Assembly: GCA_044226015.1 (NCBI GenBank)
Contig: JBGAHS010000002.1
Location: forward strand, 723,434-787,433
DNA from: Candidatus Obscuribacteraceae bacterium
Lineage (GTDB): Bacteria > Cyanobacteriota > Vampirovibrionia > Obscuribacterales > Obscuribacteraceae
Length of the DNA stretch: 64,000 bases
Reading direction: 5' to 3'
Under the pieces are notes generated by a model. That model was not told the DNA's origin. It did no database searches and saw only the letters and a program-made list of their open reading frames with translations. This document shows, in pieces, positions 4,064 through 35,175 of this stretch. Made by a program: the position numbers and the translations under genes. Each line of letters opens with the position of its first letter. Position 1 is the first letter of the stretch.

Positions 4064-5368
4064 TCAAGCCTGACTTTTTGCTTTGACTTCTTCGATGACC
4101 ACCGCCACTTTTTCTTGCGACCATGAATCTAATCTAGTTGTGAAAAATGCGGCAAGCATCAAGGCAAGAACACCAGTAAGAGATAGAGTATGACCGACTC
4201 CTATGACATTTGCCAGAGCGCCAGCGCCTATGCAACCGAAGGGAGCCATCCCCATCATAGCCATAACGAAAATGCTCATGACCCTTCCACGCTTATCTTT
4301 ATCAACAATTGTTTGAATCAGCGTATTACTACCCGCCATAACGAACATGCTGCCGAACCCCATCACCGCCAGTAGTGGCAATGACAAGAACATACTTGTC
4401 GAAAATCCCATTGCAAGTAGTCCCAAGCCTGTCAGTGCGCAGCCACTCAACACCCATTTTGCAAGATTTCCCTTGGCTTTACGAGCTGCAAGCATAACCG
4501 CAGCTCCAACTGAGCCCACACCGGAAGCAGCATTCATGAAACCGAGAATTGCAGCATTTCCATGAAAGACATCCTTAACATATGCTGGAAGCAAAACAAT
4601 AAATGGCATTGCAACAAGACCAAATAATCCAACAAGCATAATCAGGTCTCGTATTGGAGCAGTAGCAAAAGCATACCTGAAGCCTTCCTTCAGCTCGTCA
4701 GTTGGTCTACCAGTTTTCTTAGCAGCATCGACCTGGTAAGACTTGATGAGAAACAATGCAGCGATAACGGCAACATAGCTGAGCGCATTGAGTAGAAAAC
4801 AAATTCCTTCCCCAGTCCAGGCAACCATAAGACCAGCAACGAAGGGACCCACCAGTCGACTCAAAGTTGTAATTGAAGAGTTGACCCCAATGACCATCGG
4901 TAATTGCGTGTGGTCTTTCAGCATGTCGACAATGAAAGTTTGGCGCGCCGGCATATCAAAAGCTGTTATTACACCAAGAATTGCACTTAAGACAATCAAT
5001 TCCCACAACTGTGCCTGTCCAGTCAGAACCAACACAGACAGCACTGCAGCCTGAATAAGGGCAGCGACTTGCGTGACAATCAGCAGTTTATGCCTATTTG
5101 ACCGATCGATCACAGTGCCGGCAAATGGCGTCACCAGCAATGATGGAACCTGGCTGGCAAATCCTATCAAACCAAGCATTAGAGGTGAGTTTGTAAGACG
5201 ATAGATCAGCCAGCTCATCGCCATTTGCTGCATAAACGAACCAGTCATAGAAATGATCTGTCCGCCGAAGTAGAGCAAGAGGTTGCGATTACTGAGCACC
5301 GGGTGGCTTTTGCTTGAAGTTTGCGGCTCCATTTTTAGCTCTTCCACTGCACTGCTTACTACGGACAT
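4064..5368 (-). CDS. MFS transporter (DHA3/MFS_3-like)
   Basis: About 12 hydrophobic helices, GTVIDRSNRHK motif A, FDMPARQTF and DKRGRVMS. RBS GAGGAG precedes the ATG at 5368. Confidence 0.9.
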   Translation of the reverse strand: MSVVSSAVEELKMEPQTSSKSHPVLSNRNLLLYFGGQIISMTGSFMQQMAMSWLIYRLTNSPLMLGLIGFASQVPSLLVTPFAGTVIDRSNRHKLLIVTQVAALIQAAVLSVLVLTGQAQLWELIVLSAILGVITAFDMPARQTFIVDMLKDHTQLPMVIGVNSSITTLSRLVGPFVAGLMVAWTGEGICFLLNALSYVAVIAALFLIKSYQVDAAKKTGRPTDELKEGFRYAFATAPIRDLIMLVGLFGLVAMPFIVLLPAYVKDVFHGNAAILGFMNAASGVGSVGAAVMLAARKAKGNLAKWVLSGCALTGLGLLAMGFSTSMFLSLPLLAVMGFGSMFVMAGSNTLIQTIVDKDKRGRVMSIFVMAMMGMAPFGCIGAGALANVIGVGHTLSLTGVLALMLAAFFTTRLDSWSQEKVAVVIEEVKAKSQA

Positions 5369-5397
5369 TATAACGACTCCTCGAACCATACTTCTAT

Positions 5398-5424
5398 AAT
5401 GAATGAATTCATTCATTCTGTCAA
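5398..5424 (-). promoter_or_regulatory. TetR operator (perfect 20-bp palindrome) within the MFS promoter
   Basis: AATGAATGAATTCATTCATT (5398-5417) is its own reverse complement and lies just downstream of a minus-strand TTGACA (5419-5424). A related site ATGAATTCGTTCA overlaps the TATAAT (5509-5514) upstream of tetR. Confidence 0.75.
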
Positions 5425-5545
5425 GCATCTCTAAACTTCAACTAGCATAAAAACTCATTTCCTGCCATCGATTATAGATTTTGCAGGGGAAAAGATACCA
5501 GAACAGAGTATAATGAATTCGTTCAGCTAATTCGAGACAAATCCC

Positions 5546-6142
5546 GTGGCGCGCACCCTGGACGAAAACAAAAGAACAGCGATTTTAGAAGCTGCAAAGT
5601 CCGTTTTCTTGACCGTTGGGTATGCTGACGCCAAGATTTCGGAGATTGCTGCTGCGGCTGGAGTCGCTGCAGGAACGCTTTATCTCTACTACGATTCCAA
5701 GGAAGCACTGGCCAGCGCAATCGGTGAGTCATTCTTTGCACGATTGAGTAAGCAGTTCGGTCTTGTAGTAAAAAAAATCAAGGGTCCGGAGACCATAGAA
5801 ACATTTGTCGACTGGGCACTCTCGATTTCTGAGCAGGAAAAAGACGTTCTTGCGATTGCACGAGAATATCAGCACAGCAGCAAGAGAAAAGATTCCTCAA
5901 GGAAATTGCTGGTCAATCAGCTTGCTGATGTTTTCAAAGAAGGAATGGAACGCAAGGAGATCCGCAGCTTTAGCGATGCAGAAGCCCTTGCAGAAGTCGT
6001 ATTAGCCGTGATTCGGCGGCTGTTTATGTCACAAGCTCTTTTCAAAGATGAGAACAAAGCTGCCTTGAGGCAGGTCGCAACTCAGATGCTCAAACATGCT
6101 CTGTTTGAAGATGCATACCTTCAGTCGAGAGAAAAGCTCTGA
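5546..6142 (+). CDS. TetR/AcrR family transcriptional regulator
   Basis: N-terminal HTH ILEAAKSVFLTVGYADAKISEIAAAAGVAAGTLYLYYDSKEAL; divergent from the MFS gene. Confidence 0.93.
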   Translation: MARTLDENKRTAILEAAKSVFLTVGYADAKISEIAAAAGVAAGTLYLYYDSKEALASAIGESFFARLSKQFGLVVKKIKGPETIETFVDWALSISEQEKDVLAIAREYQHSSKRKDSSRKLLVNQLADVFKEGMERKEIRSFSDAEALAEVVLAVIRRLFMSQALFKDENKAALRQVATQMLKHALFEDAYLQSREKL

Positions 6143-6180
6143 GCACAATCGGCTCAGCATTGTAGCTCAGTTCAAGGCGT

Positions 6181-6317
6181 AGCTCAGGGCTAAGCGTTGC
6201 GGACCAGCCCAGGGATGAGCATTGCAGAACAGCCCATAGCACAGTGTTGCGGACCGACTCAGGGATCAGCATTGCAGAACAGCTCAAACCCAGCGTTGCG
6301 GAAAAGCTCAGGGCTCA
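6181..6317. repeat. degenerate 25-bp tandem repeat, ~5.5 units
   Basis: Units start at 6181, 6206, 6231, 6256, 6281 and 6305 (AGCTCAGGGCTAAGCGTTGCGGACC-like). The last partial unit ends in the stop codon of the 6315-7490 gene. Confidence 0.8.
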
Positions 6318-7490
6318 TGGTTTCTTCGCAGCATCAATATTGTCGTTATAGGCGTTGAAGAGTTTCACGAACTCCGCTGAAGCATCAAACTGGGTGTACT
6401 TCTCCTGCGCATTTGTGCGAGCACCTCGCAGCGGACCAGGATAGCTATGCTTCGCTTCAACCAAATTAAAAACAGTCAATCGCAGCGGGTCGCCACTAGA
6501 TGTGGTGCTTCTATACTCTTTGACATAATCTTTGGTTTTCTCTTTAGCGGGAGTTGCCAGTTTCCAATTGCTCTCAGCGTGAGCGGTGCCTTTCGGAAAC
6601 AAATTTGCAGCATAAAACTTCTCTTGCAAAAGCGGGTTTTGGTCTATGTTATTGATCGCGGCCAATGGACTTGCCTTTTCAACAACATCATTGCGTCCGA
6701 CAGAACGCAAAATCTCAGCAAGAACAGACTGCCTGCGATACTTCCAACTTCCTGTAATCGGCAACGTTATTTTGTCTCCAAGGAGATTTATAACAGCTAC
6801 ATTGTGTGCGTTTCCAGGCTTCAATTCATATTTGTATGCTGTGGACATGGTTGAACCGACCAGACCAATCGACGGAAACAAATTCGCCTCTTTGGAGACA
6901 AGCGCATTTAGAAATGGACCGCCCTGAGACCAGGCAATGGCACCCCAGGTTTTGTGAGATTCGTCAACGTTAGCAATCTTTGGCACAAGGTCTGCTACTG
7001 ATTTGACGAACTTCATATCGTCATAGCCGGCAAAAGCCTGGTCTTCTTTATTCAAAAGCGAGCCTTCAGCATTCCAGGCAAAAGCTTGCTGCTTGGAATA
7101 CTTGCCCAAATAGTGCTTCAGGGGAAGGGGATAAACAGCCACAAAGCTATGTTTAGGGTCATCAGCTAACTGGTTCATTCCTGACTCTTTGGCAAAGTCT
7201 TTTATGTCCCACTGCGGCTGAGCTGAGCCCGCCAGAACAAACATGACAGGCAGAGACTTTGCATCAACATTAGCGGGAATGTGAATCTGAAACTCACGAC
7301 CATCTTTCATTTTCACGAGGTGATCGCCGGCCGAAAGCTTGCCCAGTGGCAGCTCTTTGCCTTCTGGTGTTAATTCAACTGCATGGGAAATTGCATCTTT
7401 TGTCAGAGCCTGGCGTGAACGCTCAGCCTCACTGTGCGGGGCAGGCTCAACAAAATTCTCTTTGGCTCTGTCTTCTAGAACAGCAATCAT
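6315..7490 (-). CDS. alpha/beta-hydrolase, PHB-depolymerase/LpqC-like esterase
   Basis: REFQIHIP, LPVMFVLAG, FVAVYP, AWNA, DDMKFV, nucleophile elbow AWSQGG and a C-terminal HSYPG. Confidence 0.7.
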   Translation of the reverse strand: MIAVLEDRAKENFVEPAPHSEAERSRQALTKDAISHAVELTPEGKELPLGKLSAGDHLVKMKDGREFQIHIPANVDAKSLPVMFVLAGSAQPQWDIKDFAKESGMNQLADDPKHSFVAVYPLPLKHYLGKYSKQQAFAWNAEGSLLNKEDQAFAGYDDMKFVKSVADLVPKIANVDESHKTWGAIAWSQGGPFLNALVSKEANLFPSIGLVGSTMSTAYKYELKPGNAHNVAVINLLGDKITLPITGSWKYRRQSVLAEILRSVGRNDVVEKASPLAAINNIDQNPLLQEKFYAANLFPKGTAHAESNWKLATPAKEKTKDYVKEYRSTTSSGDPLRLTVFNLVEAKHSYPGPLRGARTNAQEKYTQFDASAEFVKLFNAYNDNIDAAKKP

Positions 7491-7506
7491 AAATCACTAA
7501 ACGACC

Positions 7507-7596
7507 CTATATATGCGACTCTAATGAGCAATTGGCGAAATGCCAAGTTATAAAAGTTTCCCCTGCAATATTTTTCGTAAAAACATCACTGATGTT
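7507..7596 (+). repeat. direct repeat copy 1 (left island boundary)
   Basis: Matches 10927-11014: the first 57 nt differ at one position, and both copies end in AACATCACTGATGTT. Confidence 0.92.
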
Positions 7597-7924
7597 AGAA
7601 AGACTTTCATTTTCGAATCATGGGCGGCCTCCATAACAGCTCCATAACAGCTTTGACGTTAGCCGCTGGGAACACCGAAATATCTTCCGCAGTGGGTGTG
7701 CATGACCCGAACTAGATGGTCACAGTATCCATGCCATCAGTCTTGTAAATGTCGAATCGCTTTTTCCAGTAAGCAGCTTCGTGGTCGCCTTCAAATTGAA
7801 TAAATCCACCGCCGGATTAAATTGATCTGTATTCTAATTTTCTGATGAACCATAACCGTTTCACACTCCTTCCAAGAAAATTTCAACCTCTTCTGGGAAT
7901 ATTGAATGCGGTAGAGGACTTCGA

Positions 7925-8218
7925 GTGCCAAATCAGCCAAGCGACCACAACGAAAAAGAACGTCCCGAATCAAAAGCGGAACAGGCTGAGCAGCGCGCTG
8001 CGAAGTCAATCATGCGCCAGGAATCGCCTGAGGATCGCCAGGCGTTAGTCGACCGGCAAACCGAAGCCGCGGAGAAGGACAAGTCGATTCGGGCGATGAC
8101 CCCAGAGGCGGCTGCAACGCTTGCTAACGCGGCGAGAAAGTCGTTGGACCAGCGACACTTGCGCTTGGGTTCAGTCCCATCCTGGAGAAGACGAAGAAGG
8201 ATGGATCGAAATCTGTGA
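7925..8218 (+). pseudogene. N-terminal part of the toxin gene, separated from 8215-9663 by a 1-nt frameshift near 8126
   Basis: GAGG RBS before the GTG at 7925. Adding one A in CTTGCTAACGCGGC yields a continuous read ...AAATLAKRGEKVVGPATLALGFSPILEKTKKDGSKSVILPGRT.... Confidence 0.7.
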
Positions 8219-9663
8219 TCCTCCCTGGCAGAACCCCCGAAGATGTGCAGGCGCTGAACAACGCAGAGGCTGCGGGTGGGAAGAGTCCGTTCCCATTTAA
8301 TCCAGATGAGCTGCAGGGGAAAGCAGCCGAGCCTGACTCGCACCATGCAAATGTTGAGGAGCGGCGCGGTGATGGATCCGTTTTTCTGAAGGTGAATCAG
8401 CCGCTCGACGATGGACCGCCGCCTGCGGAGAAGTTCATGAAATTCGTCGAGGCTGCCGCCAATAGAAGCCTGGATCCTCAAGCCTGGGGCAATTGGTGCC
8501 AGGCTGAGCTGACGAAATTTGGTGGCATCGGCGAAGGTTTGAATGAGGCGAAGGAGGAGACCAAAGCGGCGGTTGTCGCTGGCGTGAAGGCGCTATTTGA
8601 TGGAACTGTGACGAACTTCTTGGCGCAGCCGAATGCGATCAACTTGCCATTGTTCAAAACCGTTTCGAATGTAGTTGATGCGATGGGAAAGGATCCGAAC
8701 TCTGTGAACCATGCGCTGGAAGCGCTCAGTAATGCCGTGGTAAAGGCGAGCAATGATTACAGCGCGAAAGGACCTGCGGAGCAGGGAAAGGATATCGGCA
8801 AGGCTATGTTCGGCATGGCGAATCTTGAAGGAAGCACTGAAGGGGCTGAAGTCGCTCTGAAAGTCCTCGACCGGGTTGCAACTCACGTCGATAAGACCGT
8901 GTGGAGTGCAATTGACACGACCATGGTTGCGATCAAAGATATGGCTCCCGACCTCGCTGCGCAGACAAAGCAATCGCTGTATGATTACATTAGAGCTAGC
9001 GGAATCACTGGACCAGAGTTGGAAGCTGCGGGTGTCCCACGCGATTATTTTGCAGCGATGAGCGATGCTGCTGGTGGAAAGGAAGAAAATTTTCTCGCCA
9101 TGTCCAAAGCAGAGGGCTCTGATGGTGCTCCAAAGAAAGCTAAACTCAGCGATTCAGCTGGAGAAATTGAATTTCAAATTGATAAATCAACAGGTCGCTT
9201 ACAACGTACTGACATGGGAAAAGTTCGACCACCATACAACTGGGAAGCCATCAATGAGCGCTTTTCTTCGGAGGTGGTTAGGCAAACGACCGACGACTCT
9301 TGCATCTCGGCTGTTGGCGAAATGTTATCGCAGGGAAGGCTGTCGGAGAAAGAATTGATTACTAAGCTTGGCGAAAGACCCGACATTTTTGATCTTCTAG
9401 AGCATCTTGGACCCAACTGGTCGAAGAAAGGAAAATTTAGGTCTCTAGCTGAAATAGGTAAGAATGGACCATGGGGAACTGAATTGATGGAAAATGCCGG
9501 AACTGATCTCGGAAAATCAGTGCATTCTGTTATTGTTGAAGTTATCACTTCCTCAGGTAACGTGGTTATTCACGATCCATGGGAAGGAACTGTATATGAA
9601 ATGACAGAGAAGAATTTTAATAAGGGTTGGACGAGAAGGATTGTGTACAAGACGGAATTGTAG
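8215..9663 (+). CDS. polymorphic-toxin-like protein with C-terminal papain-fold (peptidase C39-like) domain
   Basis: Ala/Gly-rich helical middle region. The tip has VRQTTDDSCISAVGEM (Q..C), VHSVIV (H) and IHDPWEG (D), as in C39/papain-like folds. A small ORF follows immediately. Confidence 0.65.
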   Translation: MILPGRTPEDVQALNNAEAAGGKSPFPFNPDELQGKAAEPDSHHANVEERRGDGSVFLKVNQPLDDGPPPAEKFMKFVEAAANRSLDPQAWGNWCQAELTKFGGIGEGLNEAKEETKAAVVAGVKALFDGTVTNFLAQPNAINLPLFKTVSNVVDAMGKDPNSVNHALEALSNAVVKASNDYSAKGPAEQGKDIGKAMFGMANLEGSTEGAEVALKVLDRVATHVDKTVWSAIDTTMVAIKDMAPDLAAQTKQSLYDYIRASGITGPELEAAGVPRDYFAAMSDAAGGKEENFLAMSKAEGSDGAPKKAKLSDSAGEIEFQIDKSTGRLQRTDMGKVRPPYNWEAINERFSSEVVRQTTDDSCISAVGEMLSQGRLSEKELITKLGERPDIFDLLEHLGPNWSKKGKFRSLAEIGKNGPWGTELMENAGTDLGKSVHSVIVEVITSSGNVVIHDPWEGTVYEMTEKNFNKGWTRRIVYKTEL

Positions 9664-9676
9664 CGAGGTTAGCTTG

Positions 9677-10075
9677 GTGTCGATTATTCCTGATAGATAT
9701 TTAAAACAGCTTATAAATTCCGGTCTTTTTGTTTCGGAACCATTTCCCGAAGGACATGTGTGGGAGCATGGCGTGCGCGTCGGAAAACCAACGGCGGCAA
9801 AAGGCAATCTCATTCCGGGGTATGAAGCTGGGTACGTCACTATGGGAGATGAAGTTGAACCACCTGAGATGGATGCACCATATGTGGTTCTTTTTTCGAA
9901 GGGGAAGGAATGGTTTGTTCGTGCACAGGAATGCATACCGAAGCCCGGGCATGGCGATTTCACAAATGTATGGACGACGGCTGATGAAGCTGTACAAGAT
10001 ATTTTGGATTTCTATTTCGGTGACCCAGCTCGAATGCTTTTGAAAGCAGAACGCAAAATGTCTTCGTCACCCTGA
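9677..10075 (+). CDS. putative cognate immunity protein
   Basis: GAGG RBS and GTG 14 nt after the toxin stop; small cytoplasmic protein; a truncated paralogue follows. Confidence 0.6.
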   Translation: MSIIPDRYLKQLINSGLFVSEPFPEGHVWEHGVRVGKPTAAKGNLIPGYEAGYVTMGDEVEPPEMDAPYVVLFSKGKEWFVRAQECIPKPGHGDFTNVWTTADEAVQDILDFYFGDPARMLLKAERKMSSSP

Positions 10076-10153
10076 GCAAGACTCACAGTCCAATCGGGAA
10101 TAGTGATCAGTCATTCGCAAAAAATTCTAGGATGCGGAGAATTTTCTGAAGTT

Positions 10154-10318
10154 ATGGCATTAATCGAAAAAGAGTATTTAGACCAATTGAGAGCCGCTGG
10201 CTTATTTGTTTCGCCTCCGTATTCTCCAAATCACGGATTTCCGAACGGTTTCTTTGTGGATCTCTCACCGCAATCTCTATTTTCACAAAGGTGGAGAAAC
10301 AGTAGTTTTCCCCTATGA
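10154..10318 (+). pseudogene. truncated paralogue of the immunity gene
   Basis: MALIEKEYLDQLRAAGLFVSPPYSPNHGFPNG aligns with VSIIPDRYLKQLINSGLFVSEPFPEGHVWEHG; similarity stops at ~10250. Confidence 0.65.
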
Positions 10319-10532
10319 AAGCATTAAGGTATCGCTGCCGTTCAACGATATTGTCGATGCAAAAAACGACAGCACGCTTCGTGGTGTATTCCTTGCTGCT
10401 GGTGATGGAAAGCGATTTTTTGTTCCTGTCGATGGTATCACTGATGGTGAATTAGACCTGTTGAAAATCAAACCGATGGTAACTCTGGCGCGTGAGGCAT
10501 TAGGTTTAGTGGTTGAAGTGAAAAACTCCTAG
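10255..10532 (+). pseudogene. 3' fragment of an unrelated small gene (possible orphan immunity remnant)
   Basis: Protein-like open frame (KGGETVVFPYESIKVSLPF...REALGLVVEVKNS) with no convincing start, abutting the previous fragment in another frame. Confidence 0.4.
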
Positions 10533-10926
10533 AAACAATCTTCATCTTATGCGGGACAGCTCCAGGCAAAGCCTCTCTCATGTTAATACTGGAATTATCG
10601 CAATTCTTGCATGACGAACAGCAGCCGTCCCCTGTAGACGAGCTTATAGGAGGCGCTGCAGTTCTTCCTTTTCTCGAATTCCGAAAAGGCGAGCAAGAAA
10701 AGTGAATGCGCGAAGAAGGTGAGCGTATCTGTAGGCACCAATTTAGTGACTACGAGGTGAAAATCTTTTCCGTAGGTGATTGTGCAAATCAGCACGCGAA
10801 TATCAATCTAGAATACCCTGCACCCAAATTGTCTACACAACTACAACTATTCTATCTGTCGCCTTGCACCACTGGTTAAGCGCGTCTCGCACCATCTGAT
10901 CGAATTGTTCATAAAACTCTGGAACT

Positions 10927-11014
10927 CTATATATGCGACTCTAATGAGCAACTGGCGAAATGCCAAGTTATAAAAGTTTCCCCACTCTATTTTTCGTAAA
11001 ACATCACTGATGTT
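10927..11014 (+). repeat. direct repeat copy 2 (right island boundary)
   Basis: Near-identical to 7507-7596. Confidence 0.92.
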
Positions 11015-11057
11015 GCCGGGGTCAATAGATGTACAATAACGTCTCAGCCCCTTCTTC

Positions 11058-13838
11058 ATGATCAAAATGAGTGCAGAGCAAGAACCAAAAATCGGAGAAG
11101 AGCTTGGCAGGTTCAAACTGCTAGCTTTGCTCGGAAGAGGCGCCTCTGGAGACGTATACAAGGCGCATGACGCCCTTATGGACAGAGAGGTCGCGCTCAA
11201 GATTTTGCACAAACATGAGCTTGCCGACCCAATCGCAAGAGCAAGGTTTGAGCGCGAAGGAGTAATCGTCTCATCGCTTTCCCACGAAAACATAGTTCAG
11301 TTTTTCGCGGTAGGAATTTCCAAAAGCGGTTATCCATACATTGCCATGGAATTGCTGGAGGGCAAAACACTCAGAGAAGTATTAGACAGCGAAGGTTCTC
11401 TAAATATAGAACGAGCAATTGATATAGTTAGTAAAGTTACCGAAGCGATTCAATACGCCTTCGATAAGGGTATCCTTCATCGCGACATCAAACCAGAGAA
11501 CATAGTTTTACTTGAATCAGGATTCGGCGAAACAGCTAAACTACTGGACTTCGGCCTGGCGAAAAATCTAACGAGCCATTTAGACGAAACAACGCTAACC
11601 CAAACAGGGCACCTTATCGGAAGCGCATCATACATGGCTCCTGAGCTGGGAAAAGGCGAAAAGCCCGACCACAGGACAGACCTTTACGCTATCGTATCCG
11701 TGTTGTTTGAATGCATTGCAGGGTCGCAGCCATACACTGGTGAGACACCAGCTGCGGTGCTCTATCGGCACGCCAACGAACCAATTCCATCGCTCAGCAA
11801 GCGCGCGCGAAAGACAATCACACCCGAACTCGAATCAGTAATCAAACGCGGTTTGGCAAAAGACGCATCTGAGAGATTCCAGCTTGCAAGTGAATTAAAC
11901 ACCGCCTTGCAAAAGGCTCGCAGTTCACTTACTAGAACGCAAGAAAAAAAGAAACTCCTTCTCCCTATTACAGCTCTTAGCGTATTGGCAGTCGCAGCCA
12001 TGCTAATCACAAACATGACAGTCCATAATGACAAGGCGATTCAAGCAAGCGAAAAAACCATATCACCACTCAAGCTAAGGCAGCTAATTATGGCGTCCTT
12101 ATCGGATAATCCGGCGGAGTTTCCGGCGCAATCAATTGAGCAAGCGCTAAAGCAAGAGCTCACTCCGGTTGAGCGCGGACTGATACTGCGACTCAAAGCA
12201 AGAAACACAAAGAACCCTTCTGCGAGATTGTACTATTACATACGTGCATTTCAGTTTATGGCTTCCGACGAAGCAAATGCACCAATGTACTGCGAGCTAG
12301 ATTGTTTGCGAAACGCCATACAAGGCTGCGGCAATGCAGGTCTCTCAAATGCCCAGAATAGATACTTATATCGCTACATAAACAAGCTTACGAAATGGAT
12401 CAAAGACGGTAAACCAATTCCGGGACAATATAAAGTAGCGACCATTGTTCCTTACAGAACAAACCTGCAAAACGCCAAACTTGAAAAGATTCTAGTACAT
12501 CTATCCAGAGGACAAATTGCTAAAGGTCGTGCTGAATTCGCCCAGATAGAAGGGGGATTAGAGTATGCCCCTAGTGTTTTCTTGAGTCAAATCAGATGGA
12601 AGCTGGGAGAAAAAAAACGGGTTGAAGATTCCATTTATGAAGACCATTGTACAGCAGAATATTTATCCTTTATGTCCGGTTTCTTTAGAGAAAAAGGATT
12701 GAACGAAATGGCACAACGCTGCTCATCCCAGGCAATTGAAAAAACCAAAGACAGTGTAAACGAAGAGGTCTTCCAGACAAGTATTCTTTCATACATAGCA
12801 GAACGAAGATTTGCAGATGCGATAGAGTCTATCAAACAGAGGTGTGCACTCGATTCAAACAATTCGCGAAGCAACTGGCGCGAATACACAAGAAGGCGCT
12901 CTTTTCGCATTGCTGCTCTTGAGTATTGCGGCGACTCAGCTGAAGCAGAAAAGATGCTGAAATCATTCCTCGCTTCCAAAATAGCCGAAAAAGAAGATCA
13001 AGCTATCTTGACTCAGTTTAGTGAGTTGCTCTCAAAGGCTCCTTCGGCTCCACGAGAGCAGTTTCACTACTTACTCAAAACATCCTTAAAGCAAAATGCC
13101 GCCCCCTTGCTGCAGTGGTTTGCCATGAGCCACGCGAAAAATATTTCCAAGACTTTTGTTTTGAGCAAAGACGAGAAATTACCTTTGTGGCTTGCAGAGC
13201 AAATAATAATACGACAATATTGGCTCAGCACTAGAGAAATAGAACTTTGTAAGAGCATTTTGCAAGAAACGAAAAATCCAAAAGACAACAGCTTTAACGC
13301 AGGAAATATCAGGGAGGCAGCACAAATAAGGCTGGCAGAATTGTATTACACCGTAGAAGATCCAGCAAAATGCATCAGAGAACTAGAGAATATTGAAGCA
13401 GCTAGTAATGAAGCCTACGCTTGCAATCGAATCTACGGTCTCGAACTGCAACTCAAACGACAAAAGCAAGCCTCTAGAATCATAGACAGCTGCACCGATT
13501 TCAAGGAACTTTTGCACATGAGCAGGTCTTCTATTGAAAATTCAGAGCAAATACTTGGAGAGAAGTGCCTGAGCAAAGCCAAGTCAATGCTGGGAAAAAA
13601 CGTTTTGAGACAAACTCAGTTCTACACAGAGCAAGCCCTCGCATACCTGGAATTTGACCAGAATAACAAAGTAGAAAGCGCAACCAAATGGATAGATTCA
13701 ATGAAAATTCGCCTGAATCTAACTGCCTTTAACACGACTACAATAAGCGATGCGGCACTAGCCATGCTAATTGCAGACAAGAGAGAGCGAGGCGATGAAA
13801 TCATAAAGATTCTACAAACACGAGACGACAAAAACTAG
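11058..13838 (+). CDS. Hanks-type Ser/Thr kinase with TM helix and large helical (TPR-like) C-terminal region
   Basis: GRGASG, VALK, HRDIKPEN, DFG and APE motifs; TM segment LLLPITALSVLAVAAMLI. Confidence 0.92.
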   Translation: MIKMSAEQEPKIGEELGRFKLLALLGRGASGDVYKAHDALMDREVALKILHKHELADPIARARFEREGVIVSSLSHENIVQFFAVGISKSGYPYIAMELLEGKTLREVLDSEGSLNIERAIDIVSKVTEAIQYAFDKGILHRDIKPENIVLLESGFGETAKLLDFGLAKNLTSHLDETTLTQTGHLIGSASYMAPELGKGEKPDHRTDLYAIVSVLFECIAGSQPYTGETPAAVLYRHANEPIPSLSKRARKTITPELESVIKRGLAKDASERFQLASELNTALQKARSSLTRTQEKKKLLLPITALSVLAVAAMLITNMTVHNDKAIQASEKTISPLKLRQLIMASLSDNPAEFPAQSIEQALKQELTPVERGLILRLKARNTKNPSARLYYYIRAFQFMASDEANAPMYCELDCLRNAIQGCGNAGLSNAQNRYLYRYINKLTKWIKDGKPIPGQYKVATIVPYRTNLQNAKLEKILVHLSRGQIAKGRAEFAQIEGGLEYAPSVFLSQIRWKLGEKKRVEDSIYEDHCTAEYLSFMSGFFREKGLNEMAQRCSSQAIEKTKDSVNEEVFQTSILSYIAERRFADAIESIKQRCALDSNNSRSNWREYTRRRSFRIAALEYCGDSAEAEKMLKSFLASKIAEKEDQAILTQFSELLSKAPSAPREQFHYLLKTSLKQNAAPLLQWFAMSHAKNISKTFVLSKDEKLPLWLAEQIIIRQYWLSTREIELCKSILQETKNPKDNSFNAGNIREAAQIRLAELYYTVEDPAKCIRELENIEAASNEAYACNRIYGLELQLKRQKQASRIIDSCTDFKELLHMSRSSIENSEQILGEKCLSKAKSMLGKNVLRQTQFYTEQALAYLEFDQNNKVESATKWIDSMKIRLNLTAFNTTTISDAALAMLIADKRERGDEIIKILQTRDDKN

Positions 13839-15238
13839 TAATCAAACGGTTCTAGTCGAAGGAAGCGATAAAGGCGCTTTGGCTTTCCGCCAGATTGCTT
13901 AAGTGTGGTTCTATCAGGGCGCTTATGGACCAATTGCAGCTTTAGTTGAGGCAGGTGTTGATTTGCCATGTACGCTGAAATCACAGAAAACGCAGCGCCG
14001 TGACCAAAGTCTTTTGTCACCAGATCGGTCACGTCAATGAATCTGCATTTTTTACCAAGCTCAACATCGAGAGACGGATTTTCATTGAGCCAACGCTTAA
14101 CGTCATTGGGTTCGGTAAAATCATTGAAGGTAAGCAGGTCTCCCGTGTCTGTGGTGAGCTGCGCAATGTAAGACTGACTAAAAACTTTACTTCTTTCGCG
14201 AGTAAACTTGGGTAAATCGATTGGACGACCAAGTCGAGGTTGAGTATGAATAAAGTGCGAGAGAATTAGCGGTTTGTCGCGGTCCGAGACGAAGACATAA
14301 ACCATGTTTGTCACGGCACTTTCAAATATAGATTTCTTTGACTCAAAGCTAAAAAAATCAATGTCAGCGGAACACATGAATATGTTGCGAAAAACTGGTT
14401 CTTTCAAATCAGTTACGCTAAGTCTATTTAGGTACCAGAAAAGCAATCGAGCACCCATGCTGTGGCTGATCACATCTATTTGCGCGTCCGGATTTTTTTC
14501 CTTCAGAATTCTATCGATGACCTGGTCAAAGCAAGGAGAACTCCATTCTACGTCTGCTTCATCGGTACCGTATTCGGTGCGACCACCTACCGACGGCCAG
14601 GTAAACAAAATGGGCAGTAACTTTCGTTGCGGGCTGGTCTCATACTGTTGATAGTCGCCAAAAATCATTGCCGCATCTTCGGCGGCTTCTTCAAAGGGCT
14701 TATCATAACCATGAATATAAATCGCTATAGTGCCGGTCCAATCGTGCACGCGTTTAAAGAAGTCCTCTTCGTCCATTTTAGACACAAAGTTAACTTTGGA
14801 TTTTCTCCAATCGTCAGCGTCAACACGCAAGAGTTTCTTGTATTCTTTTCCTGTTTTTGCTTTTGCGGGGCTGATAAGCCCCTTGGGCTCTGCAATACCA
14901 GCCATACCATATTCGAGCGAACCAGTCCCCTGATCAAGATGCCGCTCGCCACTAAAATCAGGAGATTTATCGCTGCCTGTGTTCAATCTTGTTGTGGCGA
15001 AATAGACCTGCACCATCTTTGCCTTTTCGGGATTCGTTTCCACGGTGGCCGCCAGAGACAACGGCGCAGCAAACAAACCCGAGAGCGAACAAGTCGCGAA
15101 CATAGCAGTCAATTTCTGCCAGAGATGGTTTCTTATAAAAGAGTTTCCGATAAAAAATTCAGAAGGGCGTGTGCGAGAAATCCGCTTTCTGAGCGCTAGC
15201 AGTACGTTCGCAACTGTCCTTATATCTACTCCTCTCAT
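13835..15238 (-). CDS. exported alpha/beta-hydrolase, DUF900 family
   Basis: VYFATTR, IYIHGY, FTWPS, SHSMG, ADID and SDRDKPL motifs; the true start may lie downstream. Confidence 0.85.
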   Translation of the reverse strand: MRGVDIRTVANVLLALRKRISRTRPSEFFIGNSFIRNHLWQKLTAMFATCSLSGLFAAPLSLAATVETNPEKAKMVQVYFATTRLNTGSDKSPDFSGERHLDQGTGSLEYGMAGIAEPKGLISPAKAKTGKEYKKLLRVDADDWRKSKVNFVSKMDEEDFFKRVHDWTGTIAIYIHGYDKPFEEAAEDAAMIFGDYQQYETSPQRKLLPILFTWPSVGGRTEYGTDEADVEWSSPCFDQVIDRILKEKNPDAQIDVISHSMGARLLFWYLNRLSVTDLKEPVFRNIFMCSADIDFFSFESKKSIFESAVTNMVYVFVSDRDKPLILSHFIHTQPRLGRPIDLPKFTRERSKVFSQSYIAQLTTDTGDLLTFNDFTEPNDVKRWLNENPSLDVELGKKCRFIDVTDLVTKDFGHGAAFSVISAYMANQHLPQLKLQLVHKRPDRTTLKQSGGKPKRLYRFLRLEPFDY

Positions 15239-15398
15239 ACCATTTCGAATTCGTATTCCGCTTACATATTCCTACTCTAGCAGACAATTTCAAATTCAAC
15301 CCGACAATCTATATTTCCTCGGCATCTAAAGTAAATACTCGCTGCTAGCTTGAATGTGCGCTACATTCTCTGCCTCGCAATTTTCGCACCTCCGCCAA

Positions 15399-15607
15399 GC
15401 TCAAAGCAAAAGCAGATTGCCTACAGCTCAAAGCAAGCGATGATCGCCTACGGCTCAAAGCAAGCGATGATCGCCTACGGCTCAAAGCAATCGAAGATAG
15501 CTTACAGCTCAATTCAATCGAAGTTCGCATACAGCTCAAAGCGAAAGCAGGACTCAAGCGAAGATCGCTTACGGCTCAATTCAAGCGAAAATTGCTTACG
15601 GCTCAAA
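15399..15607. repeat. 27-bp degenerate tandem repeat, 8 units, overlapping a gene end
   Basis: GCTCAA anchors at 15399, 15426, 15453, 15480, 15507, 15534, 15574 and 15601. The last unit TTACGGCTCAAA is the end of the 15596-16993 gene. Confidence 0.9.
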
Positions 15608-16993
15608 CCTGATGTACCGATACAGAAAAATCGGTTTGCCACCACATTGATCAAGAAACTTCGCATCCGGGCGTTTGTGCACGGGACGACCTCGCAACTG
15701 AGGGAAATCCAAATATCCAGCCATTATTGAGGACACGATGGGCCACGCAAGTGCATGTCCCATGTTCGCAATCGAAAGTTCACTTACATCTAGAAGTCGT
15801 GACTTAGTTCCAAACTCTCTGTCCAGTTGAGGATTTTTATTCAGCCAGGTGGCAACATCTGGTGTGTCTGTAAATGACGGCGCCATCAAAAGTTCCGCAG
15901 CATCTAGTGAGAGCTGTTTCCAAAAATCACCATTCATAAATTTGTCAGTCAAAGAAGTCGGCTTATTATCACTAGTTTTTGCTGTGGAGGAGTTCTGCTG
16001 AGGAGTGGAACTCGGGGGATCCATTGGTCGCCCCAGCCGCGGTGAGCCATGCATGTATTGAGACATGATCAGAGGGCGATCACGATCAGACACGAATATG
16101 TAAACCATTCCAGAAACTGCATTCTCAATCTTCTCCCGGGCAGCTTCTACTGCATGAAAATCAACATCACCAGAACAGAGGAAAAGATTATTCAAAAGTG
16201 GCTTCGACAGCTCGGGATGCTCTTCCGTCAAATAAGAGAAAATAAGTCGATTTCCCATGCTGTGCGCCACAACATCAACCGAGCAATCAGCACTTTTTTC
16301 CTTGATGACACGATCAAGAAGATGATCAAACAGCTGCTGGCTCCATTCAACATTAGCCTCATCTTCCGCATAGCGACTGCGTTCTCCTGAAGACGGCCAA
16401 CTAAAAAGAATGGGCATGAATGACTTGCCTTCTTCAACGAATTGCCCATAATCAGCCGCTAGCATCGCCGTGTCCTGCAATGCCTCATCGAAAGTTTTGT
16501 CATAGCCGTGAATGTAGATGCAAATCTTACCTGAGCATTTCCGCACTTTCTCAATCAAGTCGTCTTCGCTGAAACAACCTATAAAATTGCGCTTCGCTAC
16601 GCGCCAAACATCGGTATCAGCCTTCATCAAATCACGAAATTGCAAACCAGAAAGCGCTCTGTTTGGCGAAATCAAATTTTGCGGGGTTCGTAAGGTCGCG
16701 GTACCGTATTCGAGAGAACCAAAGCCAAGATCGAAGTGTCGGCTTCCGTTATAGCTGGGGTCTGAACGTGAACCCGCGTTGTATCTGCTTGTCGCAAAAT
16801 AAAGTTGAATCGATTTGGGAATCTTGCTAAAAGTTCGAGGACCGCGAGTATCGCCAACCGGCGTCGTTGCGGGCTTGCCGTCCTTGCAGTCTTCATCAGC
16901 TGCAAAAACCCATGCAGTTGTTTGCGAACATATCGCCAACGACATGAGAACGATCAAAAACCTGCATTTCAAAAACGAGAAGAGTCGAGTCAC
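15596..16993 (-). CDS. exported alpha/beta-hydrolase, DUF900 family (paralogue of 13835-15238)
   Basis: Signal peptide, LYFATSR, IYIHGY, FSWPS and AHSMG; colinear similarity to its neighbour. Confidence 0.85.
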   Translation of the reverse strand: MTRLFSFLKCRFLIVLMSLAICSQTTAWVFAADEDCKDGKPATTPVGDTRGPRTFSKIPKSIQLYFATSRYNAGSRSDPSYNGSRHFDLGFGSLEYGTATLRTPQNLISPNRALSGLQFRDLMKADTDVWRVAKRNFIGCFSEDDLIEKVRKCSGKICIYIHGYDKTFDEALQDTAMLAADYGQFVEEGKSFMPILFSWPSSGERSRYAEDEANVEWSQQLFDHLLDRVIKEKSADCSVDVVAHSMGNRLIFSYLTEEHPELSKPLLNNLFLCSGDVDFHAVEAAREKIENAVSGMVYIFVSDRDRPLIMSQYMHGSPRLGRPMDPPSSTPQQNSSTAKTSDNKPTSLTDKFMNGDFWKQLSLDAAELLMAPSFTDTPDVATWLNKNPQLDREFGTKSRLLDVSELSIANMGHALAWPIVSSIMAGYLDFPQLRGRPVHKRPDAKFLDQCGGKPIFLYRYIRFEP

Positions 16994-18761: not shown

Positions 18762-18911
18762 GAAAATCTTCGCTGCTTTTCAAAACTGGACCGGTTCCGT
18801 TTGAGTTCTCCTGAATATCTTCGCCCTTTTCAAAACTGCGCCGGTACCGTTTGAGTTCTCCTGAATATCTTCGCTGCTTTTGAGAACTGGACCGGTACCG
18901 TTTGAGTTCTC
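18762..18911 (-). repeat. ~50-bp tandem repeat x3 of the GGTACC palindromic family
   Basis: Three units containing AAAACTGGACCGGTACCGTTTGAGTTCTC variants. Confidence 0.9.
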
Positions 18912-19141
18912 AAATTTTCTACGTGTTTTACTGGGAAGATTTTGCTGGAACCTCATCTGTAGCCGGGCGATACCACCCCGAGCGAGCAACTGGAGACGCT
19001 TGCACCCGGGGACGCCACTATTTTGCGGCTTCGCAGTTCCAGACAACAGAATCGAGCACAGCGGCAGGATCGAGCACAACAAGCATCCACTAAAGTTCTT
19101 GAAGATGACTTCGGGTAAACTCGTGGGGTCAAAATATTTCT

Positions 19142-19231
19142 GCAAGCGTAGAAAGACTCGCAAGTGAAGATAGATTGGCAAGTGAAGATAGATTGGCAAG
19201 TGAAGAAAGATTAGCAAGTGAAGAAAGAATA
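19142..19231. repeat. 18-bp tandem repeat x5
   Basis: GCAAGTGAAGATAGATTG-like units at 19142, 19160, 19178, 19196 and 19214. Confidence 0.88.
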
Positions 19232-20113: not shown

Positions 20114-21676
20114 TCAGCAAATAGATTTCAAATCCGCGATAACCTGCTCGGCGGAAGCATAGCGTTTGCTAACATCTAGTTGAGTAGCTTTCGCTACAAT
20201 CGCATCTAGCCTATCACCGACCTTCTCGGACATTCCTTTCGGATGTAGTACCGTAATTGGTGGCGGATCAGTACCTACAAGCAAATAGTACAGCGTGGCC
20301 CCAAATGAATAAATATCGCTCTGGATAGTGGGTTTCCCTCTAAACTGCTCAGGGGAAATGTAGTTTGGCTTGCCCACAACAGAACCAGTAACTCCGCTAG
20401 AGACTTCCTGCGCAACAGAAAAGTCAATCAGCTTGGCGTAGCCGTCTAAACCCAGCATTATATTGTCCGGAGTCAAGTCACGATGGATCACTGGCGGCAC
20501 CTGCTGATGAAGATATTTCAAAATGTCGCAGATTTGAAGCGCCAATTGAACGACTTGCTCTTCAGGCATGGGTCCCTCAAGAGCTACGCGCTCTTTCAAT
20601 GAAGCCCCTTCTATATGCTCAATTACAAGATAAGCTCTGTGATCCTCAACAAACAAATCAAGAAACTTAGCTATGCGTGGATGGTCCAATTTGCTCAACA
20701 TGCTCGCCTCAGACTGAAATCGCTCGGCAGCTTTTTTGCGAACACGAATGTCAGGAAAAACTGGCAAGACGAATTCCTTTAAGACTAGCGGGTTATTGTC
20801 CGGATACTTTTGCGATTCCGCTAAATAAACAGTAGCCTGCCCTCCCACACCTACCTTGCTGAGTATCTTGAAATTGCCTTGCTCTAATGTCGCGCCTTCG
20901 AGCAAGGGAGTCAGCTTGTCGCGCTTCGGAGCACCCGACAATTCGCGCAACCAGAGTTCTGTATAACTCTGCCTGGGCGAAGCAATACGGAAAGGCTCCA
21001 AAATACTCAAGTCCAAATTTTCGGGGTAATGCTCCTCCAAATACTGAAAAAGAGTGCCTCTGTCTTTCACATCGACAATGTCGCCCCACTTCAAGCTGAG
21101 CGCTTCACCGAAATCAGGAGCAATTGAAATTACGTAATCTGCATATGATTTTTTTCCCTTTGCCCTCTCCACGCTAACGCCGGCAATTTCGCTCATCTCT
21201 ATTGAACGATGAACAATGTACGTCTTACCATCCACCTCAATTGAAGAGGCAGTGGCAACATTCTGCGAGCTAGCCAACTTGAGCCAATACAGCCGCTGCT
21301 CATCCAGAAATAAGAAATCGGACTGCTTGTTTGCCGATATAGTCAAAAGTACTATAGCTGGAATCATAGTCAAATTAGCGAGCGTGCTTGCTGTTGCCAA
21401 AAGCGACACAAGACCAGAGGCACTCGCTGCCGGCTTCGCGAAAAGCAAAGGCTTAATAGGAGCCAGAAGCAATCTAAAAAATGGATAGAGAATGTTCTCA
21501 GCCAGAAAAGGAAATATCTGGCAGAGAATTAGCATTACTACTAGAGAGCAAATACAAAGAATAACAGTTTTAGAGAATCGTTGAAAACCCAGCCGCAAAG
21601 CAGCATCTGGAAGATACTCAATCATACGAGCATTCTTGACCTGAACCGGCATCCATCGAGTCAAGATGGTAGTCAT
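20114..21676 (-). CDS. membrane-anchored Ser/Thr kinase (N-terminal TMs, C-terminal kinase)
   Basis: GVGGQATVY, VLKE, HRDLTPDN, DFS and SPE motifs. Confidence 0.9.
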   Translation of the reverse strand: MTTILTRWMPVQVKNARMIEYLPDAALRLGFQRFSKTVILCICSLVVMLILCQIFPFLAENILYPFFRLLLAPIKPLLFAKPAASASGLVSLLATASTLANLTMIPAIVLLTISANKQSDFLFLDEQRLYWLKLASSQNVATASSIEVDGKTYIVHRSIEMSEIAGVSVERAKGKKSYADYVISIAPDFGEALSLKWGDIVDVKDRGTLFQYLEEHYPENLDLSILEPFRIASPRQSYTELWLRELSGAPKRDKLTPLLEGATLEQGNFKILSKVGVGGQATVYLAESQKYPDNNPLVLKEFVLPVFPDIRVRKKAAERFQSEASMLSKLDHPRIAKFLDLFVEDHRAYLVIEHIEGASLKERVALEGPMPEEQVVQLALQICDILKYLHQQVPPVIHRDLTPDNIMLGLDGYAKLIDFSVAQEVSSGVTGSVVGKPNYISPEQFRGKPTIQSDIYSFGATLYYLLVGTDPPPITVLHPKGMSEKVGDRLDAIVAKATQLDVSKRYASAEQVIADLKSIC

Positions 21677-35100: not shown

Positions 35101-35175
35101 CGGGACGTGGCGCAGGGGTAGCGCGCACCTTTGGGGTGGGTGAGGCCGGAGGTTCGAATCCTCTCGTCCCGACCA
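35101..35175 (+). tRNA. tRNA-Pro(GGG)
   Basis: Acceptor CGGGACG/CGTCCCG, anticodon loop TTGGGGT, T-loop TTCGAAT, encoded CCA. A hairpin AAGGAGCAG/CTGCTCCTT follows. Confidence 0.95.

Follow-up and report, generated by a model that had tools for sequence, protein, structure and literature searches.

The island described here lies in a 64,000-nucleotide stretch (the window) of contig JBGAHS010000002.1, positions 723,434 to 787,433 of the forward strand, in the assembly GCA_044226015.1 of a Candidatus Obscuribacteraceae bacterium (genome G000; 8.19 Mb, 13 contigs, 92% complete). It is bounded by two direct repeats, separates an esterase-like gene from a divergent protein kinase gene, and encloses a frameshifted gene for a predicted antibacterial toxin, a predicted immunity gene and a series of gene scraps. 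The toxin belongs to a family in which a charged leader and a conserved, predicted helical core are joined to exchangeable C-terminal tips of at least 15 classes; here the tip is a papain-like protease. On the comparisons below it is a new, lineage-restricted polymorphic toxin family with an uncatalogued, predicted carrier domain, and a variant of the polymorphic toxin systems already known. The features of the locus are as follows.

6315..7490, minus strand: left flanking host gene, esterase or polyhydroxyalkanoate (PHA)-depolymerase-like (NCBIfam NF050058, E 2.5e-8, below the cut-off; ~78% identity to the relative in metagenome run X5)
7504..7596, no strand: left repeat copy, attL-like, holding a predicted sigma-70-type promoter aimed at the esterase gene (repeat alignment)
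7597..7924, no strand: non-coding or degraded stretch for which no homologue was found
7925..8218, plus strand: orfA, 97 aa, the 5' portion of the toxin gene with the charged leader (resemblance to homologue leaders; frameshift near 8125)
8215..9663, plus strand: orfB, 482 aa, core and protease tip, GTG start overlapping the orfA stop (open reading frame (ORF) and homologues)
8410..9105, plus strand: conserved ~230-aa helical core, predicted carrier or cell-entry domain (profile searches; no named family)
8562..8796, plus strand: tract with 20 differences from a 3.1-kb contig of metagenome run X2 that is identical elsewhere (silent changes in 14 codons, replacements in 5)
9220..9660, plus strand: papain-like C39 protease tip of the Cpe1/StbD-CT type, orfB residues ~336-482 (phmmer, Foldseek, structure comparison)
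9641..10075, plus strand: predicted cognate immunity gene, for which homologues favour a GTG start at 9677 (longest ORF; family pairing)
10154..10258, plus strand: truncated second immunity-family copy, first 35 codons (63% to L008/L016, E 9e-14)
10206..10532, plus strand: 108-aa ORF that probably represents the 3' end of some unrelated gene (not found in any of 103 family genomes)
10587..10853, no strand: gene scrap, 89% identical to G000:C10:73803-74080 (genome BLAST)
10845..10922, minus strand: scrap of a TPR-zinc metalloprotease gene, 78 bp, cut at the right repeat (83% DNA and 79% protein identity to G006:C36)
10924..11014, no strand: right repeat copy, attR-like (repeat alignment)
11058..13838, plus strand: right flanking host gene, Ser/Thr protein kinase (Pfam Pkinase, E 5e-44)

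A conserved core with exchangeable tips

A search for other loci with variable tips, as proposed in the initial annotation of this DNA, recovered 75 homologues that share orfB residues ~70-300 and then diverge. A profile of this core, built from 30 sequences, gave 136 matches among 1.84 billion cluster representatives. In a set of 141 partly redundant core sequences, 127 carry a tip, and these tips fall into 16 clusters, one of which is a frameshift artefact, leaving 15 tip classes. The 57 downstream genes likewise form 15 clusters, none of them common to two tip classes. The tips that can be named are a C39 protease, the CDI EC869 nuclease, a DddA-like deaminase, the BURPS668 deaminase, RelA_SpoT, DUF6932 and CdiA_C; zincin and HNH-like tips were read by eye, and about half of the 15 classes have no Pfam match. 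The DddA-like tip is followed by Imm1 and the BURPS668 deaminase tip by SMI1/KNR4. Weak matches to SseC, POTRA and Lgt1_N were set aside, as was one to ATLF (1 of 73, E 0.002), the tip concerned being by eye a generic HExxH zincin.

Mapped onto a core tree of 82 rows, the tip class changes 28 times, where the minimum would be 14 and the mean for shuffled tips is 43.7; the tree is a quick IQ-TREE run from which 30 near-copies were dropped. Near-identical sister cores carry unrelated tips at branch supports of 98-100%, and the core in the window sits on a long end branch (0.5, against 0.045 for its sister). Tips would be exchanged by recombination within the core. The number of tip classes found behind a single core, their frequent change on the tree and the matching downstream genes support the initial proposal of a polymorphic toxin with variable tips.

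The core itself matches no Pfam, NCBIfam or PHROG family; a search of the PDB returned nothing below E 0.18, the ESM Atlas gave no usable match, and the core was found neither in plasmid and phage collections nor in any of 95 viral-contig candidates. This supports the earlier remark that the toxin N terminus resembles no recognisable RHS, LXG, CdiA or PAAR trafficking domain. The low-complexity representatives P0177, P0179 and P0193 were set aside. The core is predicted to be all-helical; its structure model is poor (pLDDT 42), and a structure search with the whole protein is dominated by the tip. In every case the core sits just before the tip, behind N-termini that are unrelated to one another, including signal-bearing ones and that of a 1368-aa protein. 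Family proteins are mostly 450-700 aa long and lack repeats.

The core was detected in 46 of 103 other Obscuribacteraceae genomes, in none of three genomes of the sister family and in none of 400 sampled genomes of the phylum outside the family. Among 36 homologue loci with a host name, 25 are assigned to Obscuribacter or Melainabacteria, 5 just to a cyanobacterium or bacterium, and 6 to other groups, where they are possibly mis-binned. No description of the core family was found in the literature; subscription journals and bioRxiv supplements lay outside the search, and an earlier description is possible. PMC13483458 does not mention the group.

The split toxin gene

The initial annotation described a toxin-like gene, a small downstream gene and fragments between the repeats. 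All are present, with the qualification that a frameshift divides the toxin gene between orfA and orfB, whose stop and start overlap at 8215-8218. The first 25 residues of orfA are 39% identical to the N terminus of an intact homologue (L074; pairwise E 8e-4, a weak score), and orfA also matches P0019 (phmmer E 0.003, likewise weak). A leader profile found nothing in the source genome beyond a paralogue on contig C2.

Seven of nine listed metagenome runs contain the stretch or part of it, and four are compared here (X2, X5, X6 and X7). Run X2, from a different study, shares the frameshift of the window, and the same break occurs in runs of two studies nine years apart. One contig of X5 (record 13; 98.5% identical, depth 2.4) differs by one base in length near 8125 and has a single unbroken frame; the break between orfA and orfB may therefore simply be recent. 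Since the frameshift has cut off the leader, this copy of the toxin is probably no longer exported.

The 235-bp tract of differences from X2 at 8562..8796 suggests recent homologous recombination inside the core. It is not specific to the toxin, since the kinase gene has a similar tract: at window positions 12479-12646 there is a cluster of differences from X2, partly common to X7, which is likely a recombination tract or a mixture of haplotypes.

A papain-like protease tip and its predicted immunity gene

The tip of the window toxin is assigned by both sequence and fold. It matches the PDB entries 9L5U and 8SSM (phmmer E 1.9e-15 and 5e-15); from its title we take 9L5U to be Cpe1, the code being absent from the text of the Cpe1 paper. 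The predicted structure is recovered by Foldseek at E 6e-11 and superposes on 8SSM with Z 19.9 and a root-mean-square deviation of 2.0 over 133 residues, the next family reaching Z 14.3. The catalytic triad is intact (Cys363, His437 and Asp454 of orfB; codons at 9301, 9523 and 9574) and aligns with that of 9L5U, and the Cys, His and Asp motifs are kept in 48, 54 and 51 of the 56 tips of this class, respectively. Cpe1 and StbD-CT are reported to cut GyrB and ParE (PMC12136450; bioRxiv 10.64898/2026.05.07.723447). By homology, GyrB/ParE are the predicted substrates of the tip as well, with cleavage at a Gly-Gly motif as by these two proteases; the target motif LHAGGKF occurs once in the source genome.

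Of the protease-tip loci, 21 have a downstream gene, and in 14 of these it belongs to the same family as the gene that follows the window toxin; the family stands behind no other tip class. The product of the window gene would block the protease tip. The protein has no Pfam match and matches no PDB chain, the partner proteins of Cpe1 and StbD-CT included; prediction of a complex between the tip and the downstream protein scored 0.00, from which no reading is drawn. Orphan arrays of the same family stand on contig C12, in three and two copies, and tandem arrays occur also at L016, L031 and L072. The C12 arrays look like acquired immunity against the protease tip. They lie at 313300-314600 and 354300-355100 (L003, L004) in a defence-rich region with, as read by eye, AbiEi pairs and McrBC-like and methylase genes; the 321-331 kb region of C12 also carries tyrosine and serine recombinases and a piece of a coupling protein.

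Beyond the truncated second copy of the immunity family, the right half of the island reads as a mosaic that deletions may have fused. The 108-aa ORF scores 0.93 to unnamed clusters and 0.88 to bPH_6 in the Atlas, a weak lead to bacterial PH-like folds. The counterpart of the next scrap on contig C10 adjoins an RHS-like remnant (by eye; Pfam gave no match), ~3 kb from a VirB4-like gene. No intact source gene was found for the 108-aa ORF or for the C10-like scrap, one of these searches being weak on account of a stop-rich frame, and no orphan tip was seen in the window. The order of toxin, immunity and orphan modules proposed initially thus stands for the immunity gene and its truncated second copy, and fails for the rest of the tail, which consists of unrelated gene scraps. 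The frameshift in the toxin gene and the patchwork of scraps in the right half lead us to regard the island as a decaying cassette.

The direct repeats and the insertion site

The two repeat copies are identical at 86 of 93 positions, with two 1-nt gaps (E 8e-31); their starts are 3420 bp apart, 7507-7563 and 10927-10983 agree at 56 of 57 positions, and 31 nt at their core are fully identical. These figures, and the position between esterase-like and kinase genes, confirm the repeats as first described. Internal palindromes were seen within the repeat sequence. The esterase gene starts 13 nt to the left of the left copy and the kinase gene 43 nt to the right of the right copy; without the island the gap between the two genes would be ~150 bp, mostly filled by the repeat. 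The sigma-70-type match in the left copy (7546-7518) agrees with the consensus at 9 of 12 positions and is a lead only, three such sites having been found where 4.0 are expected by chance.

No third copy of the repeat exists in G000, where all remaining BLASTN word-7 matches have E >= 0.55. Its 30-nt core, with up to three mismatches, is absent from all 103 other family genomes, from 7 genomes of the genus and from the viral contigs, so the search for the repeat at other loci, likewise proposed initially, came back empty. A tRNA attachment site was rejected, as the only two tRNAs of the window lie far away, at 35101 and 50107; the target is intergenic, as had been claimed. An Rfam scan of 5000-14000 found no match. 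The repeat was also rejected as a dif site or Xer-integrated element: a dif consensus has no match at the repeats, and the GC skew keeps one sign along the contig, which places the locus away from the replication terminus.

No mobility gene was found among the ORFs of the island or the scanned window ORFs of at least 180 aa (two kinase-like ORFs at 20117-23046 lay outside the scan), and none of the 19 tyrosine- and 3 serine-recombinase matches of the genome is on this contig. On this point the initial annotation was right; its view that the interior differs in composition did not hold. The island has a GC content of 48.3%, against 47.4% for the genome, only the 5' part of the toxin gene is GC-rich (55%), and the tetranucleotide distance of the island is equalled or exceeded by 20% of 500 stretches of the same length drawn at random.

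Metagenome contigs speak to the reality of the repeats. In X2 they cover all four repeat junctions, with depths of 12 over the left flank, 12.2 over the island and 11.6 over the right flank, and the repeat is therefore not a mis-join, a possibility raised at the outset. Because the copies share 31 identical bases, short contigs are unable to separate an integrated island from a circle plus an empty site. A more informative contig comes from a relative at ~80% identity in X5 (record 10): it runs from the esterase gene to one repeat piece (7535-7566) and then to the start of the kinase gene (11100-11131), continuing to 13839. The length of this contig implies that 1598 nt or more are missing; with a collinear kinase gene, at most 1935 nt would be left for what is a 3533-nt interval in the window, too little for toxin and immunity gene. 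This is likely, though not proven, an empty site, its intervening letters being unseen. As the relative keeps one repeat piece between the same flanks and lacks at least 1.6 kb, the island is likely an insertion, one that appears to have duplicated a promoter region. The proposed integration at a short intergenic sequence is thus supported by a single repeat piece in one relative, while a clean empty site is not proven. Nothing beyond short, scattered pieces came from X6 and X7, some of them within the island. An esterase homologue is present in 7 of 103 family genomes, the closest with different upstream neighbours, and a JGI scan through esterase relatives found no empty site.

Other repeats were seen in the vicinity and elsewhere. 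Degenerate 25-nt tandem repeats occupy window positions 6131-6317, between a TetR-family gene and the 3' end of the esterase gene, and short peptide-repeat ORFs at 15350-15730 and 18780-19217 (IAYxSKQA and IYLHLP units) suggest local intergenic tandem repeats. Outside the window, at G000:C1:691700-697100, both control runs found a 467-bp direct repeat, 95% identical and ~4.9 kb apart.

Mobility of the family

Sixty-four family loci reduce to 52 non-redundant groups, of which 15 have plasmid-backbone neighbours (13 of 37 among loci of at least 8 kb). The markers counted were relaxase, coupling protein, AEP primase, SSB, KfrA and plasmid-type helix-turn-helix (HTH) proteins, found in G000 mainly on contig C2, which also carries an intact paralogue of the toxin with a different, zincin-like tip. 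C2 (L001, L171-L173) is 70 kb long with overlapping ends and is a mobilisable plasmid with relaxase, coupling protein and AEP primase; it further encodes a 195-aa tyrosine recombinase, DprA, a deaminase and nucleases.

Short bounding direct repeats were found at 5 of 32 informative family loci, against 1 of 400 control genes. The closest parallel, L058, has a 90-bp repeat with copies 2.85 kb apart around a toxin that is likewise split ahead of the core and has an immunity gene. A family-wide attachment site was rejected: the repeats of the other loci are mutually unrelated and unlike that of the window (shuffle p mostly >0.1), and the repeat therefore belongs to this insertion event and is not a site that defines the family.

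Modules of several kinds (toxin-immunity, AbiEi/AbiEii, Fic and IrrE-HTH) are bounded in one Obscuribacter-like genus by a ~32-bp site made up of two constant arms around a variable spacer of 8 nt (L054, L061, L052, L055; genomes G057, G058, G063 and G065, L103-L110). A complete chromosome of 6.7 Mb contains just two copies of this site, at which many matches between genomes begin or end. The arrangement resembles Xer/pdif-type cassette arrays. At L125 (G051:C28, ~8332 and 15393) a family member lies in a 7-kb island with a 55-bp repeat that by eye is like the 3' half of a tRNA.

Delivery

In the 92% complete G000 no match was found to markers of type III (FlhA/SctV), type VI (TssC/VipB) or type VII (WXG100) secretion or to a contractile sheath, the positive controls being detected; a search for CdiB/ShlB was blank, as was its control. 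The genome encodes two VirB4/TraG-like ATPases (G000:C10:63000-71000, L170, L002:1852-4710; and G000:C1:183000), one of which adjoins coupling-protein-like and Replic_Relax genes amid housekeeping genes. Of 103 family genomes, 102 have this ATPase, in most cases with 71-93% identity, and it is therefore part of the core genome; the locus is possibly a domesticated type IV system. In PMC4451040, a type IV system with a different VirB4 type is proposed as a predation tool of the relative Vampirovibrio. The leaders of the toxin family (median 137 aa) have no hydrophobic signal in 124 of 128 cases. Because the VirB4-like ATPase is near-universal in the family and other secretion markers were not found, type IV secretion is our leading guess for delivery, with the core as a substrate or entry domain. 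Drawn from exclusion and neighbourhood, it is favoured tentatively and falls short of being probable.

A proposed model and its alternatives

We think it reasonably probable that the island is an inserted, now decaying toxin-immunity cassette of the Obscuribacteraceae polymorphic toxin family, whose members are predicted to be delivered into neighbouring bacteria, most likely by the type IV machinery that the bacterial family itself possesses. The toxin-immunity pair would travel on mobilisable plasmids and enter chromosomes in several ways. At this locus, one crossover within ~60-93 bp of the promoter region between esterase and kinase genes would duplicate that region and leave both host genes with their own upstream sequence; later deletions would fuse the right half into scraps, and the frameshift would cut off the leader.

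Several observations weigh against parts of this model. The empty site is supported by a single contig and two 32-nt matches, and no excised or empty joint was seen among the X2 contigs, where the 31 shared bases would hide one. No recombinase is tied to the repeat. There is no such repeat at 27 of the 32 informative loci; of the five loci that have one, two are a single module in one genus and one has its repeat in coding sequence, so that the independent cases number ~3. The orfB frame is open over 482 codons and translatable from the overlapping GTG, and 'decaying' may overstate its condition. With regard to delivery, the VirB4-like gene is so common that its co-occurrence with the toxin family has no power, Pfam CagE_TrbE_VirB is unmatched, and the type IV genes covered here are those of the ATPase and the coupling protein. 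Finally, in a divergent subfamily the core is preceded by a Sec-like signal (in P0163, P0196 and P0197 by hydropathy; in P0174 and P0189 by eye), and the core itself therefore need not be the export signal. The tips of this subfamily are deaminases or HNH-like.

The same subfamily brings us to the alternative closest in weight to type IV export, a substantial but lesser possibility, in which the leader or a Sec signal exports the toxin by another route (outer-membrane vesicles, lysis, type II secretion or a pilus-linked pathway) and the core acts as a cell-entry, or pre-toxin, domain. The constant place of the core directly before the tip, behind unrelated N-termini, and its all-helical prediction would suit such a role. 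Bacteriocins, too, are carried on plasmids next to their immunity genes, and entry domains of this kind may be compared to those of colicins and StbD. Speaking against it, the core has no strongly hydrophobic segment (19-residue hydropathy <=0.68), no lysis gene recurs among the neighbours, and the structure model of the core is poor. The initial annotation saw instead an intact minimal cassette that excises and re-integrates via the 93-bp repeat with a recombinase supplied in trans. Repeats that are 92% identical around the 31-nt identical core, with internal palindromes, the single repeat piece in the relative, the 19 tyrosine- and 3 serine-recombinase matches elsewhere in the genome and the analogous 90-bp repeat around the 2.85-kb split island of L058 are all in keeping with this. 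We nevertheless judge it unlikely, since no repeat copy stands beside any recombinase, in the 103 relatives or in viral contigs, the repeats at other family loci are unrelated, the depth of the island in X2 equals that of its flanks (a weak argument), the locus is not at the replication terminus, and the cargo is broken and mosaic.

The overlapping stop and start, the intact triad and the open 482-codon frame could also mean that the split copy works as an addiction module, with orfB re-initiated at its GTG, kept inside the cell and, together with the immunity gene, preventing loss of the island between its repeats. The recurrence of the break in both studies and the split ahead of the core at L058 fit this idea; the unbroken frame of X5 record 13, itself one low-depth contig, counts against it, and with two cases only we consider it less probable still than mobilisation in trans. 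An assembly artefact, or an empty chromosome and a small circle merged by the assembler, is hard to believe: short-read contigs do break at repeats, and X2 taken alone would fit a circle plus an empty site too, but the four junctions recur at equal depth in an independent study, the window lies inside a 1.29-Mb contig and the island has no replication gene.

The eroded island is itself a useful but ordinary record of a captured toxin-immunity pair, and the durable result is the toxin family with its uncatalogued, predicted carrier domain. Time and again, the discovery of a carrier domain of polymorphic toxins has opened up new routes of secretion or entry and new toxin chemistries. The core can serve as bait for the half or so of the 15 tip classes that lack a Pfam match, each with a candidate immunity gene. 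The family also offers a first handle on competition among the uncultured Obscuribacteraceae of sludge and freshwater, and draws attention to a VirB4-like system that is strongly conserved in their core genome and as yet unexplained. A bolder version of the model, which we hold to be rather doubtful, has a conjugation machine turned by the Obscuribacteraceae into a permanent protein injector of the core genome, the 230-residue core serving as its dedicated substrate domain and mobilisable plasmids circulating an arsenal of toxin-immunity pairs that are dropped into chromosomes as short repeat-bounded modules. If true, this would be an undescribed antibacterial type IV secretion system (T4SS) in non-photosynthetic cyanobacteria, its carriers being N-terminal and its tips C-terminal, an order opposite to that of known systems.

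Comparison with known systems

The family displays the features of polymorphic toxin systems in general, as reportedly set out by Zhang et al. in 2012: a conserved N-terminal region, variable C-terminal toxins, an adjacent immunity gene, orphan immunity arrays and mobile contexts. Variable tips, a tip-specific downstream gene (a genetic pairing only) and orphan immunity modules were all found here. It differs in its core, which has no Pfam match to VgrG, PAAR, DUF4150, Hcp, LXG or DUF4157 and is likewise unmatched to the MafB, WXG100, MuF, SpvB, PrsW and PT-TG models, and in being a set of short, 450-700-aa proteins without repeats from one family of Vampirovibrionia. The known carriers of polymorphic toxins were taken from bioRxiv 10.1101/2021.10.19.465003.

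Among individual toxins, the closest are Cpe1-Cpi1 of the Escherichia coli type VI secretion system (T6SS; PMC12136450) and StbD-CT/StbI from the contact-dependent inhibition (CDI) system of Citrobacter rodentium (bioRxiv 10.64898/2026.05.07.723447; PDB 8SSK, 8SSM), to both of which the window protein is alike in its C39 papain-like tip (~30% identity), the fold and triad of that tip and the small gene directly downstream. The carrier is different from both, being neither PAAR/DUF4150, VgrG, Rhs nor CdiA, and the supplements of PMC12136450 that were examined hold no Obscuribacter or Melainabacteria entry. Assignment to the established classes was rejected on the features compared: for T6SS effectors there is no carrier domain match and no TssC/VipB or sheath in G000; for the LXG class of type VII secretion system (T7SS) toxins, no LXG/WXG100 Pfam match on the proteins and no WXG100 genes in G000; and for CdiA and two-partner secretion (TPS), proteins of 450-700 aa without a TPS domain or haemagglutinin repeats.

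Comparable in overall character are the MafB toxins of Neisseria maf islands and the MuF toxins of temperate phages, which are also short, lineage-linked, equipped with an N-terminal domain of their own and carried on mobile islands. The family here matches neither MafB nor MuF, most of its members lack a signal peptide, no MafA-like gene occurs among the neighbours, and it is absent from the viral contigs and phage records searched. With regard to the repeats, integrase-less cis-mobilisable islets and Xer-exploiting elements likewise hold their cargo between att-like direct repeats and lack a mobility gene; the target here is a promoter region rather than a tRNA or dif site, and no helper element or recombinase is linked to it. 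For delivery, the relevant comparison is to the X-Tfe effectors of Xanthomonas and Stenotrophomonas, in which a conserved C-terminal signal (XVIPCD) follows variable N-terminal toxins and the immunity gene lies upstream. Toxin-immunity pairs and a host with chromosomal VirB4 and coupling-protein genes are common to these antibacterial T4SS effectors and the present family, whose delivery is a prediction and in which the arrangement is inverted, the carrier being N-terminal and the tip C-terminal.

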